A stretch of DNA of 44,447 nt, from IMG/VR virus record IMGVR_UViG_3300002461_000295, positions 1 to 44,447 of that record. One strand, 5' to 3'. The stretch's first letter is position 1. Every line of letters begins with the position of its first letter. Under the pieces are notes generated by a model, which ran no database searches, was not told the origin of the DNA, and was given only the letters and a program-made list of their open reading frames with translations. Below are positions 9,829-26,397 of this stretch, piece after piece. The translations under genes were made by a program, and so were the position numbers. This DNA comes from a virus.

Positions 9829-10195
9829 CGTCCGGCGTGTGATTGCCGGTCGCAGCGGTAATCCCCTCGATCGCCGACTTCAAGCCGTCGATCGCTTTGC
9901 CGTTGGTTTCGGCCCGCTTGGCATCCAGCTCGCGCGCGCCCGCCGTCATCGTGTAGTGATAGGCAACGACACCACCGGCAAAGCCCGAGAGCTGCCCGAG
10001 CATATACGTCAACAAGTCCTTGTTGGCTTCAGGCACCGGCAACCAGACCAGAACCATGATCGCGCCGAGAAACCCGAACACCAACGAGCAGCCGATCACG
10101 TTGGCAAGCAGCCGCACGTTGGCCGGACGATCAATCATCACCCGTGCGCGGCGCTCCCCAACGCGGTCGAGCCATTCCCAGATCGTCACGCCCAA
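9752..10195 (-). CDS. Holin candidate (147 aa, two predicted TM helices)
   Basis: Hydrophobic segments LLANVIGCSLVFGFLGAIMVLVWL and LTYMLGQLSGFAGGVVAYHY with a charged C-terminal tail. Its start overlaps the endolysin stop. Confidence 0.6.
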   Translation of the reverse strand: MGVTIWEWLDRVGERRARVMIDRPANVRLLANVIGCSLVFGFLGAIMVLVWLPVPEANKDLLTYMLGQLSGFAGGVVAYHYTMTAGARELDAKRAETNGKAIDGLKSAIEGITAATGNHTPDVTLQPGETAQADPAAGGGADRQTKG

Positions 10196-10758: not shown

Positions 10759-11222
10759 CGGTATCTCCCTTCAGACTTTTCGCGGGCATTCATCATTGGC
10801 GCGGGGTGCGCATTTTCAGTTGGCAGCACAAGCATTCCCGTTGCGCGGAACAGCAGGAAGAAGACCGTGAACGCAATGCCGATCGTCCATGACAGCGGCC
10901 CCCACCAGCCGAGAAACGTCGTCCACGCCTTCGAGCTGCCAAGCCGCACATTTTCAGCAGCCGTCAGCGTGTGGATCGTGGCGTATGCGGCATCAAGCCG
11001 TTCCTCGATTTTCGCCACGGTCTCGTTGACCCGGTTCGCTTCGATTTTCGCCAGTCGTTCCAGCATTGCGTTTTGCGTTGTCTGAAAGACGCGCATCACT
11101 TCGGACTGTTGGCGCACACTTTCAGCGAGGCTTTTGATGACCTCAAACTGAAACCGCAGGTCGCTCTCGGTCCCGCCTTGGTGAAGCGCGCGCATCAGTG
11201 CTTCGTGAACTTCCTCGCTCAC
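10755..11222 (-). CDS. Coiled-coil protein with C-terminal TM helix (lysis-cassette associated, possible holin or antiholin partner)
   Basis: Heptad-like N-terminal 100 aa, then WWGPLSWTIGIAFTVFFLLF. ATGA overlaps with the tail-fibre and endolysin genes. Confidence 0.65.
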   Translation of the reverse strand: MSEEVHEALMRALHQGGTESDLRFQFEVIKSLAESVRQQSEVMRVFQTTQNAMLERLAKIEANRVNETVAKIEERLDAAYATIHTLTAAENVRLGSSKAWTTFLGWWGPLSWTIGIAFTVFFLLFRATGMLVLPTENAHPAPMMNAREKSEGRYR

Positions 11223-13735
11223 GTCATGATCGCATAGCTAATGTCGATGGAGACATTCGTCCACACATCACCAGATGCACTATCCATCCAGGATGTGCCG
11301 TTCAGAAGATGCATTTGGAACGGTTGAGCCATAGGCTTTGCGACCTCATAAGTGAACATCGCACCGCCGTACCGCGTTGGAGCCGCTGCGTTTGAAATGA
11401 CGAACAAGGGCTTGCCCGCCGCCGTCGATGTGCCTTCGAGAACACAGCTCAGCCCGAACGTATCCGATGCAACTTGACCGCCCGTTTCGCCGTACCAATC
11501 AATGATCCCGCCTTCCGAAGCGGTAAAGTCAGCGCCGAAAAACGTCGCCGGAACAATCTGCGTAATGAACGGCAATGTCGCGGCAGATGACGGAACGTAA
11601 TTGCCTTCGCCAAGCAACGTCCCAAAATCAAAGCGAGGATGGGCAATGCTCCACGGCTTATTGATCGACGATCCAAACTTAAAAGACAGCGTCAGATCAG
11701 TGGCATTGGTTGGGACAGGATATGTCCATTCGACCCATTGCCAGTTACCAGTTGCCGCGATAGGCGCGCTTGCCGTGTCGAGAATAGCGTTACTGGCAAT
11801 CCCCAACGATATCGTCGTCCCCACTTGCCCACGAACCCACGCCCCCCAGACAATATTTCGACCGCGATAACGCCGGGCTTCCGCAACAGTCTTGTTGTGA
11901 CCGATATAATCACCGTCCGCCGCAGGCACAAACACCAGCGCGCGCTTCATCGACGGGCGAAGATTGCACGTCCAGCCCGGCTTGTTCGGCGCAGAAGCGC
12001 CGCCGACAAAGGTTTGCCCCGAACCAAACCCGTTAGAGATTTCCGGCCATTCATCGACATAGATTGTTGCCGCCGCCGACTTCAGCCAGCCATCGGGACC
12101 GTTGCCCGTGCCAACGCTTTGCGTGCCGCCGCGCATGACTTGACGGCAGACATAATTAACAGCGCCCGTCGCCGGTCCCGTGCCACCCGAATAACGACCA
12201 TTGCGCGGCGGATAGAACGTGAACGTCAGGTTCGTATAATTGACCGACAGAACCCGCAGCGTCGATTGCAGCAGCGCCGGATTGGCAACGCTCGCCGCGA
12301 TCGAGGCAGGCGTGAACGCAATCAGCGCGCCGGGATAGAGAAACTGGACAAAGCTATCGCCTTGCGCGGTGACAATCTTTTGTTCGCCAAGGCCGGTCGA
12401 TACCGAAATATTCGACACCGCAATATGCGGGAACACAATGCCCGAATAATTCCAGTTTTGCCGCGTGTCGAAAGCATCGAGATAGGCGTTCAGATTGGCT
12501 TCAGCGCCACCCCAGCCCGGCCCGATCGCAGAAAAGATTTGCCATTCCGAGTTGGGAAAATCATTGCGCCCCGAGCCGTTGACCGTTGACGGCACCGCGC
12601 CGCCCCTGCCAGGGCTGTAGAAATAGGACCGCCAGAACCCGCCGCCGTCACTAAAGAAAAGCGCGGACCCGCCAGCAAGCAGCGTCGTTGGCCCGTCACC
12701 GCCGCCCGGATAGGCAAGCGTGATCGAGCCGTTGGACGCATTGGAAATCGCAACCCCTTGCCCTGCCACAAAGCCAGTGGCGGGCAATGTGATTGTGACG
12801 CCCGCCGTTCCAACCAGAATGTTTGCGCTCGAATGTGTGGCAGCACTGAGAACGGTTGAACCCGTCAGCACCACTTGCCCGGTTGAACGCAGGCCTTCCC
12901 GGTTATTTGCAAAGAGCGAGCGCCAAAACCCCGTACCGTCCGCATGCAGAAGCACCGAACGGCCAGCCTGAAGCGTTGTGGCGGCGTCGCTCCCGCCCGG
13001 AAACGCCAAGGTTATCGATCCCGTCGAAATGTTGGACAGAGCAATAATGCTGCCATTGGAGAACCCGGTTGCCGGAAAAGTGATCGTGATCCCATCGTCA
13101 TTAGCCAACACGACCCGGCCCGCATGCGTCGCAAACACCAACGACGTCGTCGTTGAAACCAACACCTGACCAAGCGAACGAAGCCCCTGAACGACAAAAT
13201 CTTTGAGCAGCTCCGCAAGCGTGCCGCCACCCGCCACCCCAATAAACTTAGCGCCGTCTTTGCTTGCCAAGTCTTTGCGCAAGCCCCCGTCCGCGCCCGT
13301 GCCAGACGACCAGACGAAGCCCACACCGCCCGGCGCAACGACCGGATACTTGCCCGCGACGTCCACACCGCGCGGGATGGCAGGCGCGCGCAAGCTGCGA
13401 TCACGAAGCCAGATATCGCGGATCGAGGCGCGATCGAGCGGATTGTTCAGATCGCGTTGATAGAACGGACCTTGCGTTTCGAAATTGACCGTCTGTCCGA
13501 AATACGGATTGGAGCCGACGAACAGGATGCCTGACGCAGGCGCGACCAGAAACGTCACCGTGCCCGTGCCGCTTGGCGCAACCGCCACCGTGTAGAGCGC
13601 CGACGACACCGTAGCGCCGTCAATCTCGACCATGACTTCGCTCGCGTCCGCAACTTGGAACGTGAACGGGAACGCCGTTGTCGCGCCGTTCGGATAGTAA
13701 GGGCCGCTGAAGGCGTTGAGAGCTTCGATCGTCAT
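11219..13735 (-). CDS. Tail fibre / tailspike (838 aa) with an internal tandem domain duplication
   Basis: It follows the internal-core genes, as gp17 does in T7. The N-terminal anchor-like region has an L..KDGAKFIGV motif. There are two ~95-aa repeats (aa ~184-279 and 281-374) and a long Gly/Ser/Thr/Asn-rich C-terminus. Confidence 0.85.
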   Translation of the reverse strand: MTIEALNAFSGPYYPNGATTAFPFTFQVADASEVMVEIDGATVSSALYTVAVAPSGTGTVTFLVAPASGILFVGSNPYFGQTVNFETQGPFYQRDLNNPLDRASIRDIWLRDRSLRAPAIPRGVDVAGKYPVVAPGGVGFVWSSGTGADGGLRKDLASKDGAKFIGVAGGGTLAELLKDFVVQGLRSLGQVLVSTTTSLVFATHAGRVVLANDDGITITFPATGFSNGSIIALSNISTGSITLAFPGGSDAATTLQAGRSVLLHADGTGFWRSLFANNREGLRSTGQVVLTGSTVLSAATHSSANILVGTAGVTITLPATGFVAGQGVAISNASNGSITLAYPGGGDGPTTLLAGGSALFFSDGGGFWRSYFYSPGRGGAVPSTVNGSGRNDFPNSEWQIFSAIGPGWGGAEANLNAYLDAFDTRQNWNYSGIVFPHIAVSNISVSTGLGEQKIVTAQGDSFVQFLYPGALIAFTPASIAASVANPALLQSTLRVLSVNYTNLTFTFYPPRNGRYSGGTGPATGAVNYVCRQVMRGGTQSVGTGNGPDGWLKSAAATIYVDEWPEISNGFGSGQTFVGGASAPNKPGWTCNLRPSMKRALVFVPAADGDYIGHNKTVAEARRYRGRNIVWGAWVRGQVGTTISLGIASNAILDTASAPIAATGNWQWVEWTYPVPTNATDLTLSFKFGSSINKPWSIAHPRFDFGTLLGEGNYVPSSAATLPFITQIVPATFFGADFTASEGGIIDWYGETGGQVASDTFGLSCVLEGTSTAAGKPLFVISNAAAPTRYGGAMFTYEVAKPMAQPFQMHLLNGTSWMDSASGDVWTNVSIDISYAIMT
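12614..13186 (-). repeat. Two tandem ~285-nt coding repeats inside the tail-fibre gene
   Basis: GLRSLGQVLVST..ITITFPATGFSNGSIIALSNISTGSITLAFPGGSDAATTLQAG..GFWRSLF aligns with GLRSTGQVVLTG..VTITLPATGFVAGQGVAISNASNGSITLAYPGGGDGPTTLLAG..GFWRSYF. Confidence 0.85.
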
Positions 13736-13737
13736 GG

Positions 13738-16700
13738 TCAGTCCCTTCTATCTTCGAGCTTACCAGTCTGAAGCCCGCGCAACCAGTCCCCCGCCGTTTG
13801 CGGATCAACTTCGCCATTTGCCCAATCGGTAATGAATTGCGCGGCGTTCGACACTTGGCCGACCGGGAGCTTGGCGACATAGCCGATTGTCTCGACGGCA
13901 TTCTTCACCGCGCGCCCCGAAGGCTCAGTATCTTCGTTCATGTCAACCAGGCTCGCGACGTCCTTGCCCGTCTTGATCGCGGTCTCGATCATGCGGCTGG
14001 CAGGCGTGAAGGAATAATCGAAGCCGGACGCGGCGGACCCGGCAATGTCGCGGATCACCGGCACGCCCAGAAACAGCCCAAAGAACATATGTTGCATTGC
14101 CCACATGCCCCAATCTTCATCCTCTTCAGGACCATTGCCATTCAGGCCCGCGCCAATCAATGCCGGGACCAGCGGCGCAACCGCGAACAACCAGAACGAC
14201 CGCGCCAGCAGCTCAGGAAAATCACTTGCCCGGCGCGCGGCAACAGCATCCCCGGCGTCACGCGCGATCGAGCGCTGGCGATTGTAGAACGTGTTCGCAT
14301 AGGAATAGAACATCGTCGCCAGCCGCATCCATTCGGACCCGCGCTGGACGGATGACAGGTCTTTTGCCGAACCGGCACCCTGCGAATTGCGGACCATTTT
14401 GTCAGCGTAAAACACCGCGTCAGCGTCCGTCATGCCTTCGTGCAGCGCCTTGTTATACGCGCCCATCCACGTCGGGATGACAACCACCCGGTCCATGTAC
14501 CCAATCCCGTGGAACGCAAAGCGCCGGACGTCTGCCAGTATGCCGCGCCGACCTTGCAGATCGCGCACGTTCGCATTGATATCGCGCTCCATCGTGTCCA
14601 TGCGGAACCGCACTTCGCCCGACTTTTCCATGACGAAATCAAACGACTGTGCAATCTTGGCAGGCGTGCCCATTGTGGCGCGGAACCCCGACGCCATCCA
14701 GCGCACGCCGATTTGCTCAGTGCTGTTCGCATAGCCGCCAATCTGCATCAGGATCGTGGACAGGCGGTATCCCATGCCAATGATCGTCGAGTGCGTGCGC
14801 AGCGTCTTGGCGAGCTTGTCCCAGCCTTCAGCGCCGCGCCGGTCGATCGCCCATTCGTTTGCGATGTGCTGAAGCCAAGGCCGCAACTGGCGCTGGACTT
14901 CCGGCCCGAGCGTGCCCCGGATCGCCTTCACAATCCGCCGATCAGACAGGAACCGATCAGCGTCGATCACAGCTTCGCGGTGCGTCACGTCATGGATCAC
15001 TTCAGCAACGTGCCGGTTGAGAACCGCCAGCGACAGCAGCACCGGACGCGCAACCGCCGTGCGCGCCTTCGTGAACCCGCGCGGCGTGGTGGCGCGCGTA
15101 TAGATATTCTCGAAGAGCGCATCGCCCGCCGCCGCCGCTTGCTGTTCGGCAGTCAAGTCCTTCGCGGTATCATAGACCACGGGATAATAGCCGCCGTTCA
15201 TCGTTGTGCCGTCATTCAGGACGAACGCGCGGCGCTCGACCTTTTCCGGCTCGACCCCGTTCAGGCGCTTTTCCATGCTCGCGATTTGCGGCCAGAGCGT
15301 TTCGATCGTGTCCCACAGCGATTGAACCAGCGTCCACTCTTCAGGCTTCAGCTCACGATTGAGGACGCGCATGATCGCATCAGGCGACCAGCCATAGCCC
15401 CGCGCCAGCTTGTCAAAATTGCCTTCGTTGCCGACGTTCAGCGCAATCGAAATCAACTGATCCCGCGTCATGTCCCACGGTTGCCCGGTTTCCCGGTTAA
15501 GGAACTCAGGAATTGTCACATGCTCAGACCAGCGCTTGATCGTTTCCTTTGGCAGCGCCTTCATCAGCCCTTGGATACGCCCGATATAATCGCCCATCAT
15601 CTCGCGCTCGCGCGTTTGCGCGTCCGCAATGCGGCGGAACACGACACGGTTGAACGTGCCGTTCGGATTGCCGTCGTCGAGCCAGTCGAAGACGGTTTCC
15701 ATTTTCAGCAGCGCCGCATCAGCCGATGCAATATGAGCCTTCAGCTTATCGGCAATGTTCGGTGACATGCGATTGTTCGGGTTGCGCTGGCGAAGACCCT
15801 CGACCGTCGAAAGCGCTTCCCCAACCACTTCGTCAAAATCGCGCTGATCCTTTGCGTCGAGCAGCTTTTGCTTCAGCCGCCCCAGGTGGATCACTTGCTT
15901 GACGCTGTCATCCAGGCCCTTCAGCTCTTCGACCGACATGCGCGAATAGGGGACGCCCGCATCCTCCAGGCGCGGCGGGATGACAATGTCGATCCCGTTC
16001 GCCTGTTGCCCAGCCGCCCAGACGGCAAAGCTCTCTTGTTCGTTGATCGAGCGCTGCGAGCGCGGACGGAAATCGAACTTTTCCAACAGGGCGTGCGCGC
16101 GGTCGAGATATTCCTGATCGACGCTCTTCATCGTCGCGCGCTTGGCAATCTTGCCTAGCCGCGTCACCGCCGCCTCGACGTCGTCCGCCGCGCGCTTCGC
16201 CTCGACAAGCAGCGCCTGATTGAGCATCTGCGATTGCTTTTGACGGAAAGCTTCGTCCACGTCCCCGGCAATGAAGGCAGCTTCAGCCGAGCGTCCGGCC
16301 TTTGCCACGGCGCGCGCATAGCGCTGGATAGCCGACCGGCTGGCGACGTCCACAACCTTGCCTTCAGCAATCTTGCGCGCCGCCCATTCGCGCGCGAGCC
16401 GGTACGGCGTTGGCGCGACGCCCCGGCCCTTGCCGAGCTGGCGAGCTTCAGCCGCGATCACTTCGGCTTGCCGATCGTTGTTGATGGCAGCAAGCGCTTC
16501 CTCTTCGATCGTGCCATCGTTCAGCAGATCGCCGTGACGTTCAATCATGGTTGCCGCCGTCTGTTCGTCGATCAGGCGCGCGCGCACCGTCCGCTTGTCG
16601 CCAGCGCCGCGCATTTCGGACTGAAGCTGTTCGACGCCCATCAGCGACCGGACCATTTCGTCACCGTTGCGGAAGCCCGCCATCGCTGCGATCGTGTCCG

Positions 16701-19700
16701 CGTCCGTTGTGTCCGCGTCCGCATAGATCGGCGGGACGCCTTTAGGCAGCAGCGCCAGCGCATCGGCCCCATAGGTCTCGACCAGCCAGGCGCGATCCAG
16801 CTTCACCTTGACGGCTTCACGATCCGGCTCACCCAGCCACCGGCCCGTGCGCAGAAGGTGAAGCGCGCGGAACTCAGGACGGGAATTGATCGCGTCCGTC
16901 ATGCTCGCGCGGACGTTGGTTTCCTCCTCCTTCCACGCCTTCGTGCGCTCGCGCCGGATCGTCGCCATCGTCTTGTAAAGCAGCGCATCGAACGCCTCAG
17001 ACCGCGCGTCCGCCGTCGCCTGTTGGTACGCGGCAAACTCAGCTTCCGTCATGCCAGCTTGCGCGGCGTCAGTGAACATCGCCTTCACGCCTTGGCGCGC
17101 GCGCTCTTCGTTGATCGCATCCTCGGTTGCCAGCATCCGATCAAACACGGCCCGCACTTCCGGCGTCAGATCGACGCGAAGGTTCGACACATGCTTGTAG
17201 ATATTGAGCAGCCAGCCCCGGAAAGCATCGAACGCCCGGCGCAGCGTCGCGGACGGCGACTTGCCTTCCATCGTGTAGCGCTCAAACCCGCGCGCCCACA
17301 ATTCATGCGCCTCGGTTGGGATGAAGCCGTCATCACCGACCGGCGCGCCATTCTCAGCGAACCAGGCCTTCACGGTCTCCCAATCAGCCTTCACGTCGTC
17401 CGGCGCGCCCGTCATCATCGCGTTGCGCTTGAACTCTTCAAGCCAGACGTGCCCGGTTTCGTGGATCACCGTTGACAGGTCCGAGCCTTGGAACAGGTCA
17501 ATGAACGTCGGACCCGTTTGCCCGGAGATGATACCACCCGTCGTCCGCCCGCGCGTGCCCTGAAACAGCGGGAAGCCTTGCCGCGCCGCGTCGCGCAGCT
17601 CAGGCGTGATCGTGAAACCCGGCTGTCCGGCAGGACCGAGCTTTTCCATTTCCGCCTTGATTACATCGATCGTCCCTTCAGGCACGACCAGTCGAAGCGC
17701 TTGATCGTACAGGTCTTGCGCTTCATTCCATGCAGCGCGCGCATCGTCAGCAGCCGCGCGAATGTTGTCGGGGATGGCACTGTCCGGCGCGGGCGCGTCG
17801 ATAATCTCACGGGCTTGCGTCCGCAGCTCGACAGCCCGGCGCGCGTTGCCCGCCGCGCTTTCACGATCAGCTTCCTGATACAGCTCAAAAGCCTTGTCGC
17901 GATTGGCGGCGCGCCCAGCGTCAGCGGCTCGACCGAGCGCCGCTTGCGCTTCGCGCACCGCCGCGCCCAATTCCATTACATAGGAAAGCCCGCGATCCAG
18001 CGCCGTTCGCAACGCCTGTTGCTGATCAGCGGGAAGCGCAGCAAATTGCGCAGCGTAATTCTCAGTGACTTGCAGCCGATCGGCATACTCTTCGGACTTG
18101 TCGCGCATGCCATCGACGCGCAGACGCTCAACCTTTGTGCCATAAGGCTTCAGCAGCTTGTTCGTGACGTTGACCAGATCGCGCTCATAGAACCAGCCGA
18201 CATTGTCGTTCGTCTTGCCGCCGTTGTTTTGCCCCTGCTTCACCCACGCGACTTGATCGTATCCGCCTTCAGCCGCCCAAGCGATAATCCGCTTCATCAC
18301 CAGGTCCGGCCATGTTTTCTTGAAGGGCGCGTCTGGGATGCCGTTGATATTTTCAGCATCGTTACGCCGTTGGCGGGCTTCATCGACGCGCAACGCCGCC
18401 GCCTGATAGGCCGATGCCGCAGCCGCCAGCTCTTCCGGCACCTTTTCCATAAGGTTCATGTCGCGGTTAATGATCCGCATGCGATCCATTGGCATGCGCT
18501 CGCGTTCGTCCGAATTGGATGCCTCTATCGCGGCAATGCCCTCTTCGGTCTCGTAACCCATTTCGTCGCGGATTTGATCGTCCGAAAGCCCACGCTCACG
18601 AAACACGCGCAAAGCAGCGCGCATCGCCTGAAGCATGTCGTCGCGATAGCGATCATAGGCGGCAAACAGATCGTTGCGCGCCGCGTCCGCAGCGTCGTTG
18701 GCAAGCTGCACGCCCTGTTGCGCCTCAAACACCGCCATCGGATCGACGGGTTGCGCATATCCTTGCTCCCGGCCCTTTTGATGCCAATCGCTTTGCACTT
18801 CCTCGACGAACAGGACGCGCTCACCGTCCGGCCCGACCTTGTCCATGAAGCGCGCGTGCGCGACGACGGCAGGCGTATCCCAATGCGTGTCCGGCGCGCT
18901 TTCAGGATTGCGACCTTCGCCCAACGGGAGCGTGATCAGTAGCTCGTTATAGGTTGGGTTGCGTTCGTCGCTCGAATAAGATTGGTAGCGAGCGCCGCCG
19001 CTTTCTTCGACCAGACTTTCCGCAACAATCGACGCCCAATCGTCATCCAGCTCTTCGGGATCGTCAGGGTTTTGCAGCTCTGGAAACTTGTCGAGTTGAC
19101 TGTTGATTTCCGAATAAGCGACGCCGTCGTTCTCAAGGGCGCGCGCGACGTCCTCGACCGACGCTTCGCCACGGATCGCACGCCCGATAGCCGGGGAATA
19201 GTACGGGCTTCCCATGTTGATGATTGTGGCTCCCAGCACGCTTTCATCAACGCGGATACCGCCGTCGCGCAACATCGCCAGGATCGCATCACGCTCGACC
19301 GGACCTGTCTGGATATCGAGCCAGTCGTTCAGGCCGGACCATTCCAATTCTTCAGCCTTGACGCCGGGAGCCTTGGCGAGCGTCGCCTTCCACTGTGTTG
19401 CGGGCGCGCGCGCCGTCTTGACCGCCTCGACCGTGCGCTGAAGCTGCGAATAGAACACTTCGCCGGACGGCTCCATGTTCTGAAACAGCTCACGCTCAGC
19501 AACCTTTTGCAGCGCTTCCGTCCGATCCTTGCCGCGCGGATAGGTGGCAACCTTCAGCCCGTACCCTTTCAGCGCATCGACGACGTCCTTCGGTGTATCG
19601 TCCGGCACCACCGCCGCCTTGAACTCACCAAAGCGAACCGGGCGCTGGACCTTCACTTCGAAATACTCAGTCGGAAGATTTGCCAGCTTGCGCAGATACG

Positions 19701-22700
19701 CACGCGCTTCCGTCAGCAATTCGTCGCTGGCAGGCTCTTCGAAGATTTCCTTTTGCCACTCGCGAATATCGCCGCGCGACAAGTCTTTCATGAATTGCGA
19801 GAAGATATCGATCCAACCAAAGTCCTTCCCGCTACGGTGCAAATGCTCAAACCGCTCGGCGAGCGCAAACAATTCATCGGACGCCTCACTCTTCACGGCT
19901 TCCATTTGATCAGGCGTGACAATGTTATTGCGGGCTTTCTTGATTGCCGTGATCGACTTGAATTGATTGGCAACGCTCGCACGCAGCGAGCCAACGCCGT
20001 AGTTATAGCCTTCCCCGTCGCGAATTGTGCGCGTCATGTCGCGAACCAGCGCGTCCATTTCATAGGGTTGGCGACGCCCGGACGTGCGACTTTCAAAGAA
20101 TTTCTTCCCCAGAACATCGCGATATTTACCAGCGATCCAGGCCTGATATTCCCCTTCGCGCTTTTTCGTCGCGGTCATCTTTTTGTCGATCGCGCGCCGC
20201 GTCGCATAGATATCGACTTCGCGCGGCCCGTTGGCGCGAGCGACTTCAGCCGCGCGCCCTTGCAACTCGCGAAACGCAACCGTGCCGTCTTCCATCAGCC
20301 AGCGATCACCAACGCGGTTTGCGGCCTCTTCCCCGGCGCGCGCCGCAATGTCAGCAAGCTCGCGCTCGATCACCGCACGGACGGCAGGCTCAAAGTTGGG
20401 ATCATCGGCAATGTCATAGCGCGATCCCTTGAACCCCTTCAGCTCAGGTTGCAGCGGTATCTTGGCCGCATAAGCCAGCTTCACGTTTTGCCCGATCGAG
20501 CGCAGATATGTCAGCTTGGCCGCATAGGATCGTTCGACCGCTTCCAGTCCTTCACGCGATATCGTGGTTTCATCAAACTCGTTATCGAGGCTTGCGCCCA
20601 GATCGTCCGCCGCCTGCTTCATGTCCGCCAGCATGACGCGCAGCTTCGGACCAACCAGATCGTACCGCGCGCGCGGCTGGCGAGGCGAATAGACGTCAGC
20701 ATCAAACGCCTTCGCGCCCGCCGACGCGGCCAGCTCTGGCGAGCCAACCAGCGAGATTTCACCGAAATTGCTGAAGCCCAGATCGGCGCGGATCACCGCG
20801 ATTGATGGAGCCGCCAGCCCGCCCAACTCTTCCGCATTGCGGAAACCCGCAATCGACAGGTTGTGAACAACGACAAGCGGACGGCCCTCTTGATCGAAAT
20901 ACGGCACGTCACCAACCGGCTGTTCGTTCCGATAGCTGTCCAGCGCCTTGCGGATTTCAGCCGTCGTTGCCTTGTCAGGATCGATCCCGCTGTTTTCGAG
21001 GATGCCCCGCAAGTCTTCAGCCGCCCGGCGCACGTCATCGGACGCGCTCCCCGGCGTGTCCGCCGCATAGCGCGGCGTGCCGCGAAGCTCAGCGTCGATC
21101 GCATCCAGCAGGGCTTGCGTGTCCGGCAGATCGCTATAGCCGCCCTCGGTAATGTCACCCGACAATTCCGCGCTGCGTTGCAGCTCAGGAAAATACCCAG
21201 CCTCGATCGCCGCCTGAAGCGTGTCGTCCAGGCCAGCACCCGTTTGCCCAGCGCCGCCCAGCATGCCACCTTGCGCCGCGTTTGCGGCGACGTCAGCGCT
21301 CGACCGGCGCACCAGCTTGCGGCGGAACCGGCCTTCGCGGTGCCAGCGATCCGCGCCCATCGACGCCAGATCACCGCCGACGTCGTCGATCCCGCCACGC
21401 GCCGCGATAAACTCCAACAGGGAAGGGCCGAAGCGTTGACGATCCGTTGCCGCGCTCTTGTCCCGACGCATGGCGTTGATCGTCATGTCCAGACCATCGA
21501 CCGCTTGAACGCGGCTCAGCGCTTCCGGCAAGATACGGCGAAACTCGACCGGGTTGAGCTTGCGGTAATCCGTCGCAGTCATGCCCAGCCGCGCGGCCCA
21601 TGTCTCACTGTTCGCCGCCCAGAGCTGCGCATAGCGATCCGCCGCGTCCGGCGCGAACCCGGCATTGGCGAGCTGATCCCGCACTTGGCTATAGACTTGC
21701 GCGGCAGGCTCAGCCGCCGTTGCCGCAGCCGTCATTTGCTCGACGATTTGCGCTTGCGTGCGATCCAGCCCTTCGGCCTGCAATTGTTCCAGGCTGGCAA
21801 GCTCAGCTTCGGACATGCCGCCCGGCGAGAACCGCGCTTCAGGTTGCAGCGCGCGCCATGCGTCCGTACCCGCCAGCCGCGCCGCCGCGTCCGCCGTTGG
21901 GATCACAACGTCACCGTCGAGCGCCAGCGCTTCATCAATCTGTTCGGCGTAATCGCTCCAAAACGGATCGTCGCGGTATCCGTCTTGCATCAGATCGCGG
22001 ATCGCTTCAGCCAGGATATAGATATTCTCGACAGGCGTTCCCTGCGTCTGTCCTTCGACAAACTCGCGAAACGCTTCAGGATCACGCGCCCGCAGCTTCG
22101 ACGCTTCCGCATCGGCCATCAGGCTGTCCATGATCACCGCCCCGGCCTTCGCCCGGTTGGCTTCAGCATAGGTGCGGATTTCGGCGCGGATACGCCCACC
22201 GGCCTCTTGCGCGGCGCGCAGCGGTCCGCCGAGAAACGCGCCGCCGATCGCGCCTTGCAGCATTTGATCGAGCGCTTCCGTCAGGTTGCCACCCTTTTCG
22301 GTGCCAAGCGCGCCACCGGCATATTCAACGCCAGACTGAAGCGCCTCGGTCCCGGCCTCACCAGCCGCCGCAAAACCGATCCGCGTCCCGACGCGGGCAG
22401 CAGCCCCGCCACCGACGCGAGACGCCACAGCGCCCGCCGCACGGCCAAAAACAGCCTCGATCCCCAGCCGCTCGATCAGCGCCGATGCCACCGCCGCAGG
22501 CGCGGCCATCGCCACATCGGTAATCGACGCATCGGCCCGCCCGTTATTCTGTGCCCGCGTCTGTCCGATATTGCCCGCTTGGCTGGCAACATAGGCAGGC
22601 AGGGCCAAGCCAGCAACCGCCATGCCGGGGATCGACTGGATACCGCTCTCGACGCCGAACGCGGCAATGTTACCCGCCGTTGGCCGCGCCTTCACATCGG

Positions 22701-23343
22701 CCCAGGTTGTCGCACCGCGTACCGGCGCAACCGCGTTGACCGTTGCCGAGCGCGCGCGGAGCTGTTCGGCTTTGCGTCGCGCCGCCGCCGTGCTGTCCGC
22801 CGACGTCCACGGCAGGGGATTGTTCGCATCCCATTCCTGAAGCGCGCCGCCGAGCTGGTAAAGCCCGGCTTCCAGCGACGAGATACCGCTTCGACCAAGC
22901 GCCAGCGCGCGATCGAAGAACCCGTCCGCAGTCTCAGCGTCGCGGGACTGGTTCGCCGCATCGCGCATGATGCCCATAGACACCGCACGATCGGTCGAAT
23001 TGCTACCCGGCTTGTTCCAGAACGATCGAAAGTGATTGCTGATCGACTTCAGCGTTGGCGCATCATCGCCCGCCGCCGCCGCGTTGCGCGGCTCTGCGTA
23101 CCACTTTTGCAGATAAGGCGAGCCGGAACGTACCGTTTCGACCGTGCGACGCGCAGCGGTTTCCTGTTGCAGCTCAGGAAGGTTGCGCTCGACGACGACA
23201 GGCGGAAGGCCCAGCTCACGCGCCAGCCGGTTGGCGCTTGCCGCCGTGTCCGGTTGCGCGCGCCGTTGACCGATGATGGCAGGGCCGGGATTGCGATCGG
23301 CGTCGAGCTGTTCGTTAATCCAGTCGCGATCATCGCTCACCAC
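13738..23343 (-). CDS. Giant 3201-aa virion / ejection-protein candidate (T7 gp16 position) with an embedded HExxH motif
   Basis: Single uninterrupted ORF with GTGA-type coupling to the upstream gene. Gly/Ala-rich hydrophobic region at aa ~224-376. HETGH at aa 1961-1965 (nt 17449-17463). Two hydrophobic segments near the C-terminus. Confidence 0.9.
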   Translation of the reverse strand: MVSDDRDWINEQLDADRNPGPAIIGQRRAQPDTAASANRLARELGLPPVVVERNLPELQQETAARRTVETVRSGSPYLQKWYAEPRNAAAAGDDAPTLKSISNHFRSFWNKPGSNSTDRAVSMGIMRDAANQSRDAETADGFFDRALALGRSGISSLEAGLYQLGGALQEWDANNPLPWTSADSTAAARRKAEQLRARSATVNAVAPVRGATTWADVKARPTAGNIAAFGVESGIQSIPGMAVAGLALPAYVASQAGNIGQTRAQNNGRADASITDVAMAAPAAVASALIERLGIEAVFGRAAGAVASRVGGGAAARVGTRIGFAAAGEAGTEALQSGVEYAGGALGTEKGGNLTEALDQMLQGAIGGAFLGGPLRAAQEAGGRIRAEIRTYAEANRAKAGAVIMDSLMADAEASKLRARDPEAFREFVEGQTQGTPVENIYILAEAIRDLMQDGYRDDPFWSDYAEQIDEALALDGDVVIPTADAAARLAGTDAWRALQPEARFSPGGMSEAELASLEQLQAEGLDRTQAQIVEQMTAAATAAEPAAQVYSQVRDQLANAGFAPDAADRYAQLWAANSETWAARLGMTATDYRKLNPVEFRRILPEALSRVQAVDGLDMTINAMRRDKSAATDRQRFGPSLLEFIAARGGIDDVGGDLASMGADRWHREGRFRRKLVRRSSADVAANAAQGGMLGGAGQTGAGLDDTLQAAIEAGYFPELQRSAELSGDITEGGYSDLPDTQALLDAIDAELRGTPRYAADTPGSASDDVRRAAEDLRGILENSGIDPDKATTAEIRKALDSYRNEQPVGDVPYFDQEGRPLVVVHNLSIAGFRNAEELGGLAAPSIAVIRADLGFSNFGEISLVGSPELAASAGAKAFDADVYSPRQPRARYDLVGPKLRVMLADMKQAADDLGASLDNEFDETTISREGLEAVERSYAAKLTYLRSIGQNVKLAYAAKIPLQPELKGFKGSRYDIADDPNFEPAVRAVIERELADIAARAGEEAANRVGDRWLMEDGTVAFRELQGRAAEVARANGPREVDIYATRRAIDKKMTATKKREGEYQAWIAGKYRDVLGKKFFESRTSGRRQPYEMDALVRDMTRTIRDGEGYNYGVGSLRASVANQFKSITAIKKARNNIVTPDQMEAVKSEASDELFALAERFEHLHRSGKDFGWIDIFSQFMKDLSRGDIREWQKEIFEEPASDELLTEARAYLRKLANLPTEYFEVKVQRPVRFGEFKAAVVPDDTPKDVVDALKGYGLKVATYPRGKDRTEALQKVAERELFQNMEPSGEVFYSQLQRTVEAVKTARAPATQWKATLAKAPGVKAEELEWSGLNDWLDIQTGPVERDAILAMLRDGGIRVDESVLGATIINMGSPYYSPAIGRAIRGEASVEDVARALENDGVAYSEINSQLDKFPELQNPDDPEELDDDWASIVAESLVEESGGARYQSYSSDERNPTYNELLITLPLGEGRNPESAPDTHWDTPAVVAHARFMDKVGPDGERVLFVEEVQSDWHQKGREQGYAQPVDPMAVFEAQQGVQLANDAADAARNDLFAAYDRYRDDMLQAMRAALRVFRERGLSDDQIRDEMGYETEEGIAAIEASNSDERERMPMDRMRIINRDMNLMEKVPEELAAAASAYQAAALRVDEARQRRNDAENINGIPDAPFKKTWPDLVMKRIIAWAAEGGYDQVAWVKQGQNNGGKTNDNVGWFYERDLVNVTNKLLKPYGTKVERLRVDGMRDKSEEYADRLQVTENYAAQFAALPADQQQALRTALDRGLSYVMELGAAVREAQAALGRAADAGRAANRDKAFELYQEADRESAAGNARRAVELRTQAREIIDAPAPDSAIPDNIRAAADDARAAWNEAQDLYDQALRLVVPEGTIDVIKAEMEKLGPAGQPGFTITPELRDAARQGFPLFQGTRGRTTGGIISGQTGPTFIDLFQGSDLSTVIHETGHVWLEEFKRNAMMTGAPDDVKADWETVKAWFAENGAPVGDDGFIPTEAHELWARGFERYTMEGKSPSATLRRAFDAFRGWLLNIYKHVSNLRVDLTPEVRAVFDRMLATEDAINEERARQGVKAMFTDAAQAGMTEAEFAAYQQATADARSEAFDALLYKTMATIRRERTKAWKEEETNVRASMTDAINSRPEFRALHLLRTGRWLGEPDREAVKVKLDRAWLVETYGADALALLPKGVPPIYADADTTDADTIAAMAGFRNGDEMVRSLMGVEQLQSEMRGAGDKRTVRARLIDEQTAATMIERHGDLLNDGTIEEEALAAINNDRQAEVIAAEARQLGKGRGVAPTPYRLAREWAARKIAEGKVVDVASRSAIQRYARAVAKAGRSAEAAFIAGDVDEAFRQKQSQMLNQALLVEAKRAADDVEAAVTRLGKIAKRATMKSVDQEYLDRAHALLEKFDFRPRSQRSINEQESFAVWAAGQQANGIDIVIPPRLEDAGVPYSRMSVEELKGLDDSVKQVIHLGRLKQKLLDAKDQRDFDEVVGEALSTVEGLRQRNPNNRMSPNIADKLKAHIASADAALLKMETVFDWLDDGNPNGTFNRVVFRRIADAQTREREMMGDYIGRIQGLMKALPKETIKRWSEHVTIPEFLNRETGQPWDMTRDQLISIALNVGNEGNFDKLARGYGWSPDAIMRVLNRELKPEEWTLVQSLWDTIETLWPQIASMEKRLNGVEPEKVERRAFVLNDGTTMNGGYYPVVYDTAKDLTAEQQAAAAGDALFENIYTRATTPRGFTKARTAVARPVLLSLAVLNRHVAEVIHDVTHREAVIDADRFLSDRRIVKAIRGTLGPEVQRQLRPWLQHIANEWAIDRRGAEGWDKLAKTLRTHSTIIGMGYRLSTILMQIGGYANSTEQIGVRWMASGFRATMGTPAKIAQSFDFVMEKSGEVRFRMDTMERDINANVRDLQGRRGILADVRRFAFHGIGYMDRVVVIPTWMGAYNKALHEGMTDADAVFYADKMVRNSQGAGSAKDLSSVQRGSEWMRLATMFYSYANTFYNRQRSIARDAGDAVAARRASDFPELLARSFWLFAVAPLVPALIGAGLNGNGPEEDEDWGMWAMQHMFFGLFLGVPVIRDIAGSAASGFDYSFTPASRMIETAIKTGKDVASLVDMNEDTEPSGRAVKNAVETIGYVAKLPVGQVSNAAQFITDWANGEVDPQTAGDWLRGLQTGKLEDRRD

Positions 23344-25454
23344 TTGACCCCTTTGCCGCGAATATAAATCCGCGTGATTTCGGCGTCCGTCGCATCAGGT
23401 GCCGCCGCCTTGATCCGATTACGGATTTCCGCAGGGACCGCAACGCTTACGTTGAAATTGCCACCCGGCGCTTCGAACCCAAAGCCGCGCGCCGTGCCAT
23501 TCTCGGTCTTCCAGGTGCCTTCGATCAGATAGCGATCAGCCTGCTTGCGGATTTCCTCGCTGTTCGGCAGGCGTCCGTTGGTTGCTTTGAAGCTGTTCGC
23601 CCAATCGTGCATCGTCACCGTGAACGCACGCACGCGCGGCGCGTCCTTCAGCGCGTCCTTGCTGTCACCCGTGCGCACGCCAGCCGCCGACAGGAGCGAC
23701 TTGGACACCGCCATGATTTCACTGTCCGTCGTCCATTGCGGCGTCTTGCCGTTGCCGCCGCCGCGCGTACTTTGAAGCACATCGCGCCGCCACCCGAGAT
23801 AGGTGTTAAAGTCCCCGTCGTCGAGAAACCCGCGCACTTGCTCAGGCCGGATCGCCAGAAACGCCTTTGGATCGGCAGCATAGGCGTCCGACAGGACGGA
23901 CCATTTGGCCGGATCAGTTTGCTCACGCGCCGTTTGTGCCGCCTTCACATTCGACCGCGCCCAATTGGAAAACTGAAGCCGGGTTTCAGGCGACAGCTTT
24001 GCAAAATTAGGGATTTGGCTTGGCGACGTGAAATTGTCACCCAGCGCCATCACGCTTTCGAGTGCCGCATCCTTCGCCTGATTTTCGCGCTCCCTTTCAA
24101 CGCGCTTGTTCAGCTCAAAACGTCGCTCTACTTCCGCCCGCGCCGACTGGCGCACTTCGTCCGTCACCCCGCGCTCGCGCGCGATCCGATCGACCGTTGC
24201 AAGCTGCGCACCCAGATCGCCCGAGGCGTTGCCTTGCGACGTGCCGCCGCCAAGCGCCGCCATCCCGTTGGCGACATAGTCCCGCGTTTCCTTTGGCATG
24301 GCCGCAAGCCAGCCGGACCCGCGTTCGCGGATCGCTTCATCGACCCGGCCCGGCCCGCCATTGTACGCGGCCATCGCCCGCGCCGGATCATTGCCATAAC
24401 GCGCCATCATCGCCGTCAGATAGTCGCGGCCAACCCGAGCGCGCTCAGCTTCGCTATCATTCTGCGCAGGGCGGACCCCAAAGCCGGGATCAGCATTCGT
24501 GCCCGGCATGACTTGCATGGGGCCGCGCGCGCCCTTTTTGCTTGTCTTGGGATCAGCCAGCGAGCCGCCGCCTTCCAGCCCCAGCACGACGCTGATCAGG
24601 CGCGGCATGACCGGACCCTTAGCGTCAGCCATTGGCCCCGGCTCACCAACCGCCATGTCAGCCAGGCCGTTCGCATCGCGCTCGACCAGCGCGGGATGAA
24701 GCTGGCGGTCAAGCCGGAGCTGCGTTGCAGCGTCGATATTGTCGCGGTTTTTTTCGAGGAACGTCATGGCTGCAACGGGATCGCTTATCGCCTTTGCATC
24801 GACGACACCCGCATAGGCCTTCGATACCGCCTCAGACGTCATCGCCTTGATCACGCCCGCGTCCTGAAGCCCGAGCAACGCGGCTTGCGCCGTCACTTCA
24901 GACCGGATCGTCGCCAGCTCCAACGCGCTGCGCTCAGGATCATCGCGGAACAGAACGAAATTGTCGGTCGCATTCTGGACACGCGCCGAGGATTGCACCT
25001 TGGCATAGGACAGCGCTTGCCCTTGCGAATACCGAGCAAGCCCGTTCATCGTTTCTTGCCGACGCCGGTTGAGTACGTTCGTCAGCATGTCGCGCTCACG
25101 CGCGTTCTGCGTGCGCGCCGTCAGCGCACCAATCTGTTCAGTGATCGCTTGCTCTGTTGGTCCGCGTGCATTGAGCGCATCGGCGTTCTGCTTCGTGTAG
25201 AAGCCCCCATCACCGAACAGCGTTGTTCGCTCAAACTCTTGATATTCGTTATCGAGCTGTTTCGCGCGCGCTTCATCGTACATTGCATTGACTTGATCGT
25301 CAGCGTTCGCCTTTTCGCTCAGCGCCGCGCCGAAACGCTGAAGCCCGGCACCAAGCGCACGCCCGGCGACCGACATATCAACCGCTTCGAACCGCTCCCC
25401 CGTTACCCCACGAAGGCGCTGTTCGTTTTCGACGATGACCGGAACGCGTGCCAT
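23337..25454 (-). CDS. Internal virion protein with lytic transglycosylase (SLT) domain (705 aa)
   Basis: LGLEGGGS...GARGPMQVMPGT...AMAAYNGGPGRV matches SLT-domain motifs. It lies between the gp14-like and giant genes. Confidence 0.85.
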   Translation of the reverse strand: MARVPVIVENEQRLRGVTGERFEAVDMSVAGRALGAGLQRFGAALSEKANADDQVNAMYDEARAKQLDNEYQEFERTTLFGDGGFYTKQNADALNARGPTEQAITEQIGALTARTQNARERDMLTNVLNRRRQETMNGLARYSQGQALSYAKVQSSARVQNATDNFVLFRDDPERSALELATIRSEVTAQAALLGLQDAGVIKAMTSEAVSKAYAGVVDAKAISDPVAAMTFLEKNRDNIDAATQLRLDRQLHPALVERDANGLADMAVGEPGPMADAKGPVMPRLISVVLGLEGGGSLADPKTSKKGARGPMQVMPGTNADPGFGVRPAQNDSEAERARVGRDYLTAMMARYGNDPARAMAAYNGGPGRVDEAIRERGSGWLAAMPKETRDYVANGMAALGGGTSQGNASGDLGAQLATVDRIARERGVTDEVRQSARAEVERRFELNKRVERERENQAKDAALESVMALGDNFTSPSQIPNFAKLSPETRLQFSNWARSNVKAAQTAREQTDPAKWSVLSDAYAADPKAFLAIRPEQVRGFLDDGDFNTYLGWRRDVLQSTRGGGNGKTPQWTTDSEIMAVSKSLLSAAGVRTGDSKDALKDAPRVRAFTVTMHDWANSFKATNGRLPNSEEIRKQADRYLIEGTWKTENGTARGFGFEAPGGNFNVSVAVPAEIRNRIKAAAPDATDAEITRIYIRGKGVKW

Positions 25455-25960
25455 CAGGCCGCCTTTTTCGCGGCTTGCAGCTTGCGCACTTGCGACGCGC
25501 CGGACAGGATCGTTGACCCCGCATCAAACGCAGCGCCGATGATTGCCGCCTGCCCGGACGCGCGCGACGACGCGGCCTTGCCGACATTGTTCGACGCGCT
25601 GATTTCAAAGCCCTTGCTTTCGCGGATCGCATTCTCACGGATCGTTTGCGCGTCTTCCCAGCCGATCGCTTTCGTGTCGAGCTGAATATCCGCCGCAGAC
25701 CCAAAGTCCACTTCCAGCCCGTTGGCAGCAAGGGACGTACGCTGTTGCCCGAGCAATTGCGCGTTGCGCCGGTATTGCCGCGCCTCTTCGATCGCGCCGC
25801 GCTCGCGCGCATCCTTCGCCGCCTCGCGGTCGAGCGAAGCGTTCTGTTCGGCAACCTTGGCCTCATAGCCCGCTTGCCGTGAAGCGTTGACGCCTTGCGT
25901 TACAGACCCAGCAGCGGCGATGGCCGTGCCAGCTATCGCAAGAGTGACCGGATCGCACAT
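25454..25960 (-). CDS. Internal virion protein (gp14-like position, 168 aa)
   Basis: N-terminal hydrophobic/Gly-Ala stretch followed by a coiled coil. Synteny with podovirus core proteins. Confidence 0.7.
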   Translation of the reverse strand: MCDPVTLAIAGTAIAAAGSVTQGVNASRQAGYEAKVAEQNASLDREAAKDARERGAIEEARQYRRNAQLLGQQRTSLAANGLEVDFGSAADIQLDTKAIGWEDAQTIRENAIRESKGFEISASNNVGKAASSRASGQAAIIGAAFDAGSTILSGASQVRKLQAAKKAA

Positions 25961-26397
25961 TGCCTGAAGCCCCGCATTGGTTGGCCGTTGATAACATCGA
26001 TAGGACCAATTTCAAAACCAAGGCGCATCAGCCACCGGATTGCAACATCATTGTGCGCATGCACCCTGTTTTCCAGCGTTGGAAACCGCGCCAGCATTTG
26101 CGCCAGGTACACTCTTGCCGTGCCCACCAGCGCGCGCGGATGCCGAACCGCTTCGTCCGTCATCAGCATCCACGGGCTTCCGATCCCCTCGATTGTCGAG
26201 ACCGAACAGACGCCCATCATCGCTTCGACCCGGCCATCCACCTTTGCCGTCCATGCCAGCGCCGACGAGGCGAGCGACAGCCGCAAGGCCTGCTTCGGCG
26301 TCCGCCCGGCAACCGCGCATTCCAGCGCGTCAATGTCGCGCATCCGGTTCGCCAGCGGCCCGATATGGACAACGCTTGCGGGCACAATCGCGATCAT
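25933..26397 (-). CDS. Hypothetical 154-aa protein, possibly GNAT-fold
   Basis: ATG 26397 forms an ATGA overlap with the nozzle gene stop. The C-terminal ...VHAHNDVAIRWLMRLGFEI resembles the GNAT C-terminal strand-helix. The functional call is weak. Confidence 0.6.
   Translation of the reverse strand: MIAIVPASVVHIGPLANRMRDIDALECAVAGRTPKQALRLSLASSALAWTAKVDGRVEAMMGVCSVSTIEGIGSPWMLMTDEAVRHPRALVGTARVYLAQMLARFPTLENRVHAHNDVAIRWLMRLGFEIGPIDVINGQPMRGFRQCAIRSLLR

Follow-up and report, generated by a model that had tools for sequence, protein, structure and literature searches.

A giant open reading frame in the ejection-protein slot

The virus record IMGVR_UViG_3300002461_000295 of IMG/VR was analyzed over its full length of 44,447 nucleotides (the window), which is an entire 44,447-bp JGI contig. 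The subject of the analysis is a single open reading frame (ORF) on the minus strand (13738..23343), which is 9606 nt long, takes up 21.6% of the window and encodes 3201 amino acids (aa) plus a stop codon, with a translation free of internal stops. Translation starts at a GTG within the sequence GTGGTGA, where the ORF overlaps the stop codon of the upstream gene for a 705-aa SLT protein, and an AAAGGGG purine run precedes this start. PHROG and Pfam scans of the neighboring genes showed a T7-like late module on the minus strand, syntenic with the gp12-gp17 order of T7, in which the genes follow one another thus: small and large terminase, portal, scaffold/protease-like protein, major capsid protein, tail tube A, tail tube B (two ORFs), a protein in the slot of internal virion protein (IVP) A, a 168-aa protein of the T7_gp14 family, the 705-aa SLT protein, the giant ORF and an 838-aa ORF.

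The original prediction for this locus, made from the letters alone, had described one 3201-aa ORF of about one fifth of the window, located in the position of T7 gp16 after a gp14-like protein and an SLT-containing core protein and more than twice the size of gp16. It had placed a Gly/Ala-rich region at aa ~224-376, an HExxH motif at H1961-H1965 (nt 17449-17463), two hydrophobic segments near the C-terminus, and the SLT domain in the neighboring 705-aa protein. Each of these points was recovered here, including the exact position of the HExxH motif; at 3201 vs 1318 aa, the giant protein exceeds T7 gp16 in length by a factor of 2.4, and the hydrophobic segments lie 151 and 115 residues from its end. 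The features of the locus are collected in Table 1.

The unusual length of the ORF is the sole argument for regarding it as an artefactual fusion of several genes, caused by an assembly or sequencing error, or as a frame that is translated as several products. The probability of this is negligible. The 9606-nt ORF is identical in the JGI, ENA (MEGAHIT) and Logan assemblies; the separately built ENA and Logan assemblies of an activated-carbon metagenome contain it at 100% nucleotide identity and with the same neighbors. Because the identical ORF is present in separately made assemblies, it is not an assembly fusion or artefact. Moreover, 65 relatives are intact single ORFs with the same slot between the same N- and C-terminal modules, and single genes of 2039-4012 aa fill the same position in cultured phages. 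The second public copy of the ORF shows zero nucleotide differences and thus offers no substitutions for a dN/dS ratio. A megablast search of the giant gene against 50,697 phage records gave no match; the phage has no close cultured relative. For the whole giant protein, neither phmmer against PDB sequences nor hmmscan against NCBIfam gave a match.

Table 1. Features of the giant ORF and of its neighbors in the late module (aa positions refer to the giant protein unless a neighbor is named).
Feature	Position	Strand	Evidence or remark
Whole ORF	13738..23343	-	3201 aa + stop; GTG overlaps stop of upstream SLT gene; identical in other assemblies
Conserved N-module, aa 1-620	21484..23343	-	aligned in 7/7 phage homologues
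Pfam LPD22, aa 27-108	23020..23265	-	E = 4.5e-16, 59.3 bits vs cut-off 28.6; in 7/8 family members scanned
Gly/Ala-rich hydrophobic region, aa 224-376	22216..22674	-	42% Ala+Gly
Junction domain, aa 621-818, holding FGPSLLEFIAARGGIDDVGGDL	20890..21483	-	semi-conserved first element of the variable region; consensus of cargo alignment
PBECR5 (PF18814), aa 819-961	20461..20889	-	E = 3.2e-21, 76.7 bits vs cut-off 25; model positions 12-165 of 239
Extension co-inherited with PBECR5, aa 962-1289	19477..20460	-	tblastn, phrog_22978, relatives with PF18814
QSDWHQ domain, blank in Pfam, aa 1290-1720	18184..19476	-	possible derived GNAT fold with long helical insert
Ala/Arg-rich helical linker, aa 1721-1904	17632..18183	-	composition; not conserved in homologues
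Conserved C-module, aa 1905-3201 (IVP-D-type ejection/encapsidation, predicted)	13741..17631	-	phrog_9880, E = 0; at least 565 IMG/VR relatives
Zincin-like domain opening the C-module, aa 1905-2080	17104..17631	-	AlphaFold2 model, pLDDT 83; hhalign to N4 gp50
HExxH motif, H1961 E1962 H1965	17449..17463	-	invariant in 70- and 38-sequence alignments
E2014, candidate third metal ligand, in invariant HE(L/Q)(W/F)ARGFE(x)Y helix	17302..17304	-	E2021 also invariant; aligns with N4 gp50 Glu
GGYYPVVYD, core motif of the C-module, aa 2717-2725	15169..15195	-	G2717, G2718, Y2719, P2721, Y2724 invariant
Two C-terminal hydrophobic helices, aa 3050-3067 and 3086-3097, flanking acidic EEDEDW	14053..14196	-	conserved in family consensus
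705-aa protein in gp15 slot	23337..25454	-	Pfam SLT aa 304-379, E = 2.4e-10; PHROG matches
168-aa internal virion protein, T7 gp14 family	25454..25960	-	Pfam PF24072 (T7_gp14) 27.4 bits vs cut-off 27; phrog_418
838-aa downstream ORF, candidate tail fiber or spike	11219..13735	-	N-terminal ~120 aa conserved with syntenic gene

Conserved modules and relatives of the giant protein

In tblastn searches, aa ~1948-3194 of the giant protein were conserved at 28-35% identity in ~50 cultured phage genomes, which belong to podoviruses of 40-47 kb. The homologues include Bbp10 of the Bordetella phages BPP-1, BIP-1 and BMP-1 (2052 aa), gp16 of Pseudomonas phage AF (2213 aa) and the corresponding proteins of Pseudomonas phages HU1 and UFJF_PfDIW6, gp32 of Cobetia phage Carin1 (2854 aa), the proteins of Caulobacter phages Jess A, SR18, RapA and BL94 (2039 aa; gp39 in Jess A), ORF24 of the Xanthomonas CP2-like phages (2478 aa), proteins of Vibrio phages (2057 aa; gp18 in Vibrio phage 1.021.A) and proteins of Microcystis and Nostoc phages (4012 aa), of which that of Microcystis phage Mel-JY33 is labelled 'lysin'. 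In the cultured relatives the homologous gene was always found in the same slot, after the gene for an SLT or lysozyme protein. The N-terminal half of the giant protein matched cultured phages only piecewise, and aa ~141-294 also matched giant proteins annotated as methylase in Shewanella phage X14, Thalassomonas phage BA3 and Vibrio phages.

An alignment of eight sequences, read block by block, resolved the protein into three parts. The first ~620 residues are conserved (N-module), the region from ~620 to 1900 is present in some members only, and the residues from ~1905 to 3201 are again conserved (C-module). In the C-module, a long helical body separates the HExxH domain from the two C-terminal hydrophobic helices. 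The identity of the C-module to Bbp10, AF gp16, Carin1 gp32, CP2 ORF24 and others was 28-35% over ~1230 aa, and the comparison of BPP-1 Bbp10 with the C-terminal 1501 aa gave E = 6e-136 with 82% covered. A scan of IMG/VR with the C-module profile yielded at least 565 confirmed relatives. Among the best 80 of these, 65 had complete ORFs of 1393-4200 aa (median ~2130), three of which reached at least 3147 aa (3147, 3222 and 4200 aa). Many proteins of 2.5-3.7 kaa from an exhaustive HMMER search also carry the C-module, and relatives of 3.0-3.7 kaa are numerous. Three further homologue searches, two of them confined to 8000 candidates, gave 5-8 matches each. The size of the giant protein is therefore in the upper tail of its family and is not unique.

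Among the closest known counterparts are BPP-1 Bbp10 and its orthologues, which at 28-36% identity share with the giant protein the slot after the gp14-like and SLT proteins, an N-module with LPD22, and a C-module of ~1250 aa that opens with DLSTxxHExxH and ends in hydrophobic helices. The difference lies between the modules: Bbp10 has ~170 aa there (2052 aa in total), whereas the giant protein has ~1300 aa containing the PBECR5 and QSDWHQ domains. Other Bbp10 orthologues carry different cargo at this place, namely ART-PolyVal, LPD23 or PBECR1.

A single cargo slot between the modules

The length of the variable region was measured in each relative as the distance from the end of the N-module to the HExxH domain. 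Among the 65 relatives it ranged from 0 to 2316 aa: it was close to zero in three (L041, L042 and L073), reached 2316 aa in L044 and is ~1300 aa in the giant protein. A Pfam scan of the inserts of 60 relatives returned 24 families. ART-PolyVal was the most frequent (18 inserts), followed by MuF_C (5), GNAT in the form of Acetyltransf_7 (4), LPD23, PBECR5 and LPD3 (3 each), and PBECR3 and Zeta toxin (2 each); ddrB-ParB, LPD1, LPD5, GGDEF, PBECR1, Pol-beta NTase, a putative metallopeptidase and others occurred once each. The region between the N- and C-modules is thus a recombination-tolerant cargo slot at a single fixed point. Module swapping, which the original prediction had proposed to look for across relatives, was seen directly.

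The insert of the giant protein (aa ~621-1904) consists of the junction domain, PBECR5 with its extension, the QSDWHQ domain and the Ala/Arg-rich linker. The junction domain, which contains FGPSLLEFIAARGG, is 43-51% identical to relatives with short inserts and also occurs as stand-alone proteins of 175-251 aa; aa 621-818 had no match in Pfam. The segment assigned to PBECR5 is predicted to be an RNase of the BECR fold. Acinetobacter phage Ab9 matched aa 821-1241 in tblastn, and phrog_22978 matched aa 1042-1275.

In several relatives the cargo slot itself holds a second, unrelated HExxH motif, e.g., AIDVVMHEVQHAIQ and VPSVVLHEVLHGV. It was found in Pseudomonas phage AF gp16 (L003, aa 807), CP2 ORF24 (L005, aa 926) and in L024, L053 and L054. 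This second motif would fit the multiple metallopeptidase copies that have been described for polyvalent proteins.

The HExxH domain at the slot boundary

The cargo slot ends at the HExxH domain, which opens the C-module in every relative covering the region. With 26 His residues in the protein, the chance expectation of an HExxH from composition is 0.016. In an alignment of 70 sequences with identities down to 27%, H1961, E1962, H1965, E2014, A2017, E2021, Y2023, G2027 and P2030 were invariant, and S1957, T1958, H2013 and a Q..RG ~30 residues upstream of the HExxH were nearly so. A second alignment of 38 other sequences agreed on the invariant residues. To judge from this pattern, the motif is certainly under strong selection.

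An AlphaFold2 (AF2) model of the domain was calculated from an alignment assembled from sub-sequences of the proteins of the exhaustive search, not from the 70-sequence IMG/VR set. The model consists of a helix, two short strands, the HExxH helix (52-72), an inserted helix and the HE..E helix (106-122). Iyer et al. (2017, PMC5512222) describe metallopeptidase domains in polyvalent proteins, i.e., phage and mobile-element proteins that join several activities, as having their two catalytic helices separated by inserts of variable kind, and the modelled topology would agree with that description. The part before the HExxH helix, one helix and two short strands, was modelled with lower confidence (pLDDT 53-72), and the zincin criterion is a three-stranded sheet with an N-terminal helix. 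A domain-level comparison with the metallopeptidase region of N4 gp50 by hhalign, for which a family profile of 15 sequences was used, gave P = 0.0018 and a probability of 15% over 96 columns. This alignment is in register, with '...tI.L..s..ETLIHELVH' opposite '...FIDLFQGSDLSTVIHETGH', and the downstream Glu positions are also aligned.

The original prediction had called the HExxH a zincin-type motif. The invariant residues and the weak profile match to N4 gp50 favor this assignment, but a matching fold was not found. The domain escaped several searches, and these results count against a catalytic zincin: Pfam returned no peptidase family for the giant protein at E <= 1, the model had no matching zincin or other structure in the PDB by Foldseek (best E = 1.7), and the domain profile found nothing among PDB sequences. 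Against BFVD the model retrieved only unannotated fragments of the same family. On balance, the HExxH is probably a zincin-type site, from which a proteolytic activity would follow.

The QSDWHQ domain

The largest element of the cargo is the domain at aa 1290-1720, which is named after its QSDWHQ motif and includes FVEEVQSDWHQKG at aa 1512-1524. An exhaustive HMMER search with this segment returned 9057 cluster representatives (50% identity) at E <= 1e-3. Nearly all carriers are 2000-8000 aa long; among the top 150, ~57 have the full-length C-module of the giant protein family. No Pfam family covered the domain in 10 short carriers or in 22 aligned members. The alignment contains 27 invariant residues, all of which are kept in the window copy (YxE...P, H, AHxRF, EExQSDWHQxGRxxGY, PxAPFxxxW..L..KR).

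The AF2 model (pLDDT 85) shows a small N-terminal alpha/beta unit leading into a four-stranded antiparallel sheet that ends at the QSDWHQ motif, followed by a helical insert of ~140 residues and then by a helix and a strand. When the model was compared with the PDB by Foldseek, almost all of the top 50 structures were GNAT proteins (SSAT, RimI, Eis2, GNA1, Hpa2); the scores were marginal (E = 0.012-0.25, probability <=0.99 on short alignments, TM <= 0.31). A comparison of the domain profile with human SSAT by hhalign was not significant (E = 0.08), and the same comparison with RimI was negative. The non-significant SSAT alignment places YRELLLTLP, AHxRF and VLFIEEVQSDWHQKG on SSAT strands 2-4 and motif A (FFVMSDYRGFGIG). 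Further hints point toward GNAT: one relative is named 'RimI-like' by JGI, and a relative in BFVD is labelled NAT_SF. For the polyvalent proteins of phages, Iyer et al. (2017, PMC5512222) describe a RimI-like GNAT family that adjoins ART, and ART immediately precedes the QSDWHQ domain in two proteins (P0088 and L067).

Two results speak against a GNAT identity. None of the 22 QSDWHQ members matched a Pfam GNAT model even at E <= 10, and the canonical motif A loop, Q/RxxGxG/A, is absent, the conserved sequence at this place being SDWHQKGRxxGY. The Pfam GNAT matches in the cargo slots fall in relatives other than the QSDWHQ carriers. With its non-canonical motif A, the GNAT assignment is weak, and whether the modelled domain represents a derived GNAT fold is nearly an even question, tilted slightly toward the negative.

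Comparison with T7 gp16, epsilon15 gp17 and N4 gp50

Bbp10 has been classified as a homologue of IVP-D (T7 gp16) in the group with an epsilon15 tail structure (Hardies et al. 2016, PMC4819975, Table 2). According to the same study, IVPs host domains destined for the cytoplasm of the host, among them N4's virion RNA polymerase (vRNAP), and muralytic domains are variably placed among them. As the placement of muralytic domains varies, an N-terminal transglycosylase is not defining for the extended IVP-D family. This bears on the giant protein, in which Pfam detected no SLT or other N-terminal lytic transglycosylase. In a cryo-electron microscopy preprint of 2026, gp35 of Xanthomonas phage Xacm4-11 (2300 aa), whose AlphaFold model was without similarity in the PDB, is treated as a gp16 analogue (10.64898/2026.02.16.706137). 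Xacm4-11 is 92% identical to CP2, and its gp35 corresponds to CP2 ORF24, one of the homologues described above.

Family-profile comparisons of the C-module with epsilon15 gp17 (P = 0.009, 355 columns) and with T7 gp16 (P = 0.02, 142 columns) were weak but co-linear; the control pairs gave P = 0.67 (T7 gp16 vs epsilon15 gp17) and P = 0.24 (T7 gp16 vs the C-terminus of N4 gp50). The best local match was the invariant GGYYPxxYD, which aligns with GTYVPHVYD of T7 gp16 and also with KGYIP of N4 gp50. Single-sequence hhalign runs of the C-module against epsilon15 gp17, the C-terminus of N4 gp50 and T7 gp16 returned probabilities of ~1%. The full-length profile comparisons to N4, T7 and epsilon15 were individually non-significant, which lowers the weight of the proposed kinship. 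HERLH of T7 gp16 (aa 559) was considered as a link to the HExxH motif and rejected, since the distance between it and the shared motif breaks co-linearity.

The giant protein contains no Cys in 3201 residues and the SLT protein none in 705, whereas the other 19 ORFs average 0.64% Cys (P ~1e-9). T7 gp16 (0/1318) and N4 gp50 (0/3500) are equally free of Cys, and nearly all of the 80 relatives have 0-2. A lack of Cys may generally mark proteins that pass the periplasm on ejection, and the composition of the giant protein would fit an ejected protein. With T7 gp16 and the IVP-D proteins, the giant protein thus shares gene position, a large, mostly helical and Cys-free polypeptide and the region of the G-x-Y-x-P-x-x-Y-D motif. 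It differs in size and in that gp16 has an N-terminal SLT domain, which for the giant protein resides in the neighbor.

The second comparison is with N4 gp50, which is itself giant (3500 aa) and Cys-free and whose cargo, destined for the cytoplasm, precedes an HExxH domain and a long C-terminal module. N4 gp50 is packaged and ejected, as is predicted for the giant protein. The cargo of N4 gp50 is an RNA polymerase, in place of the predicted RNase and the GNAT-like domain of the giant protein, and the rest of the C-terminal module is not significantly similar. The comparable size, the lack of Cys in both proteins and the weak similarity of the C-terminal module to the N4 gp50 C-terminus would be the grounds for regarding the giant protein as an N4-like vRNAP carrier. 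We consider this very improbable, as no RNA polymerase family was found in Pfam, NCBIfam or PHROGs, and PBECR5 and the QSDWHQ domain account for the middle region.

The giant protein as a probable polyvalent ejection protein

Iyer, Burroughs, Anand, de Souza and Aravind set out in 2017 (PMC5512222) the concept of polyvalent proteins, in which a zincin-like metallopeptidase serves as hub. The ORF of the giant protein joins several domains of unrelated predicted activity (LPD22, PBECR5, the HExxH domain and the GNAT-like domain), two of them signature families well above their Pfam gathering cut-offs (LPD22, 59.3 vs 28.6 bits; PBECR5, 76.7 vs 25), and it is located among virion genes, between the gp14-like and SLT core genes and the fiber candidate. 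The domain repertoire in the slots of its relatives is the vocabulary of polyvalent proteins (PMC5512222). By these features the giant protein is assigned to the polyvalent proteins sensu Iyer et al. 2017; its fusion to an ejection protein is of the sort described by Hardies et al. 2016. It resembles the described polyvalent proteins in its unrelated enzymatic domains, its locus, the zincin-like HExxH hub and the LPD and PBECR families. It differs from them in that an ejection-protein scaffold houses the array at a single, fixed position, that the HExxH domain escapes every Pfam metallopeptidase model and that the largest cargo domain is outside the Pfam LPD families.

The original prediction had suggested an ejection protein in the gp16 slot that delivers several enzymatic modules of the polyvalent type, and had singled out two peptides, FVEEVQSDWHQKG (aa 1512-1524) and FGPSLLEFIAARGGIDDVGGDL (aa 638-659), as reminiscent of polyvalent domains. 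Both peptides are in domains shared with other giant phage and mobile-element proteins, and the domain matches together with the Bbp10 homology support the suggestion as a whole.

This class was described in 2016-2017, and the giant protein is a clear example that refines the known picture without changing it. Public collections already contain the identical protein, with annotations for LPD22 and PBECR5. The present analysis appears to add three increments: a cargo slot that is single and fixed, bounded by the N-module and an invariant HExxH domain, in a family that is very common; the QSDWHQ domain, abundant and uncurated, with its possible derived GNAT fold; and the Cys-free signature.

Proposed function

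From gene order, homology and domain content we consider it likely that the giant protein is an ejection protein of the IVP-D type, in the T7 gp16 slot of a podovirus resembling BPP-1 and epsilon15, which has been expanded into a carrier of polyvalent effectors. The mechanism that we infer for its packaging, ejection, topology, catalysis and autoprocessing is drawn by analogy with T7 gp14/15/16 and N4 gp50. A few copies would be packaged alongside the gp14-like and SLT proteins in the core stack that overlies the portal. The added mass was estimated for four copies at ~0.5 MDa relative to BPP-1, with a volume of about a few hundred bp of packed DNA, and would therefore pose no packaging problem. 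On adsorption, the copies of the giant protein would be ejected through the tail in unfolded form. The C-module, which has hydrophobic helices and an acidic cluster near its end, would help to build or anchor a conduit across the envelope and the inner membrane, at the inner-membrane end, and the N-module and cargo would enter the cytoplasm ahead of or along with the DNA. There, the PBECR5 RNase and the acyltransferase-like (GNAT-like) domain would act on host or defense targets. The metallopeptidase-like domain at the boundary would most likely cleave the polypeptide in cis, thereby freeing the N-module and the cargo.

The cleavage step is the part of this mechanism with the strongest internal competitor, namely a peptidase that acts on other substrates, or a domain needed only for encapsidation. 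Two observations favor such a role over release in cis. The HExxH is conserved in the three relatives whose slot is free of cargo (L041, L042 and L073), therefore the release of cargo cannot be its sole role, and N4 vRNAP, which has an analogous domain, was reported to be packaged unprocessed (PMC5512222). The HExxH domain might thus be an effector or envelope-acting peptidase directed at host proteins, lipoproteins, wall peptides or other core proteins rather than at its own chain. Its conservation without cargo would agree with this, as would its place in the universally conserved ejection module rather than in the cargo. Host-directed proteolysis is one of the options listed for the metallopeptidase domains of polyvalent proteins (Iyer et al., PMC5512222), and since the muralytic function is split off into the SLT neighbor, an additional envelope-directed activity is conceivable. 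However, the domain has no similarity to known wall peptidases or to any peptidase family, and its position exactly at the module boundary, with the nearly invariant Q..RG upstream, fits processing in cis at least equally well. We therefore regard a peptidase that does not cleave itself as possible but rather unlikely.

A purely structural role of the protein as a giant core or ejection protein, in which the HExxH is a structural metal site or a relic of encapsidation and the cargo consists of inactive spacers, is improbable. In N4 vRNAP the region with the metallopeptidase-like domain is required for encapsidation and the protein is packaged uncut, and MuF of phage Mu carries an inactive PBECR domain (both PMC5512222); furthermore, the HExxH model is without a fold match to an active zincin and the GNAT-like domain is without the canonical Q/RxxGxG/A loop. 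On the other hand, the H, E, H and the downstream E are invariant across relatives with identities as low as ~27-30%, PBECR5 scores three times its Pfam cut-off, and the slots of the relatives hold toxin-type enzymes (ART in 18 of 60, Zeta toxin, PBECR and GGDEF) that are hard to explain as spacers.

For the ejected effector carrier, two linked readings can be carried further: the zincin-like boundary domain may be a cis release protease that fires only after ejection, and the QSDWHQ domain may represent a new family of derived GNAT-type effectors with a host or defense target. We hold this combination to be speculative and, on present evidence, doubtful. If the first were true, this very common family, with at least 565 members in IMG/VR, would amount to a chassis for protein injection that is natural and modular and has one programmable slot for cargo; if the second were true, the effector family would have a non-canonical cofactor loop and a helical insert of ~140 aa. 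The protein offers a compact illustration of how short-tailed phages can deliver proteins besides DNA, with a conserved scaffold and a slot that tolerates 0-2300 aa of toxin-type enzymes, and it flags a very abundant domain, QSDWHQ, without a curated family. Cargo release, targets and engineered delivery are questions that can be tested in the cultured phages BPP-1, Pseudomonas AF, Carin1 and Xacm4-11 and in the Caulobacter phages.

Other features of the window

The 838-aa ORF downstream of the giant gene had been named as a tail fiber in the original prediction. Its first ~120 aa resemble the gene that relatives have 3' of the giant gene, annotated in one case as a tail fiber, but the ORF had no Pfam or PHROG family match and the resemblance is confined to this N-terminal part. 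A tail fiber is plausible, and the pattern of a conserved anchor with a variable distal part, typical of fibers and spikes, makes the ORF a candidate for either. Farther downstream, a 190-aa ORF (10186-10758, minus strand) had endolysin-type PHROG matches (phrog_181 and phrog_29753) and probably belongs to the lysis cassette.

Upstream of the gp14-like gene, the tubular tail B gene is split on the minus strand (26394-28837) into a 220-aa ORF that corresponds to positions 2-105 of phrog_376 and a 593-aa ORF that corresponds to positions 103-706, which is reminiscent of phiRIO-1, where the N- and C-terminal parts of tube B are separate proteins (PMC4819975). The 184-aa ORF in the IVP-A slot (25933-26487, minus strand) shares 94 nt with the end of the tube B gene. 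Because its PHROG match begins only at residue 32, its true start is probably further downstream.

Both ends of the window (1-127 and 44322-44447) consist of a 6-nt tandem repeat (CCCGKA/TACCCG units), with 21 copies at the right end. On the minus strand this repeat reads as Gly-X-Y codons and looks like a collagen-like repeat. Probably the genome is otherwise complete and closes into a circle, and the assembly was interrupted within a gene with such a repeat. A second repetitive region (41160-41250), with 4.8 copies of TTCTGG followed by 2.6 copies of a perfect 24-nt unit, is located within a gene for an O-like replication initiator or primosomal protein (40905-41606, minus strand) and is a candidate for an iteron-type origin inside the initiator gene, as in lambda. 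On the strand opposite to the structural genes, the window encodes a recombination pair of a RecE-like exonuclease VIII (4559-5809) and a RecT-like annealing protein (6177-7061), and a similar RecT/exonuclease pair is present in Carin1.

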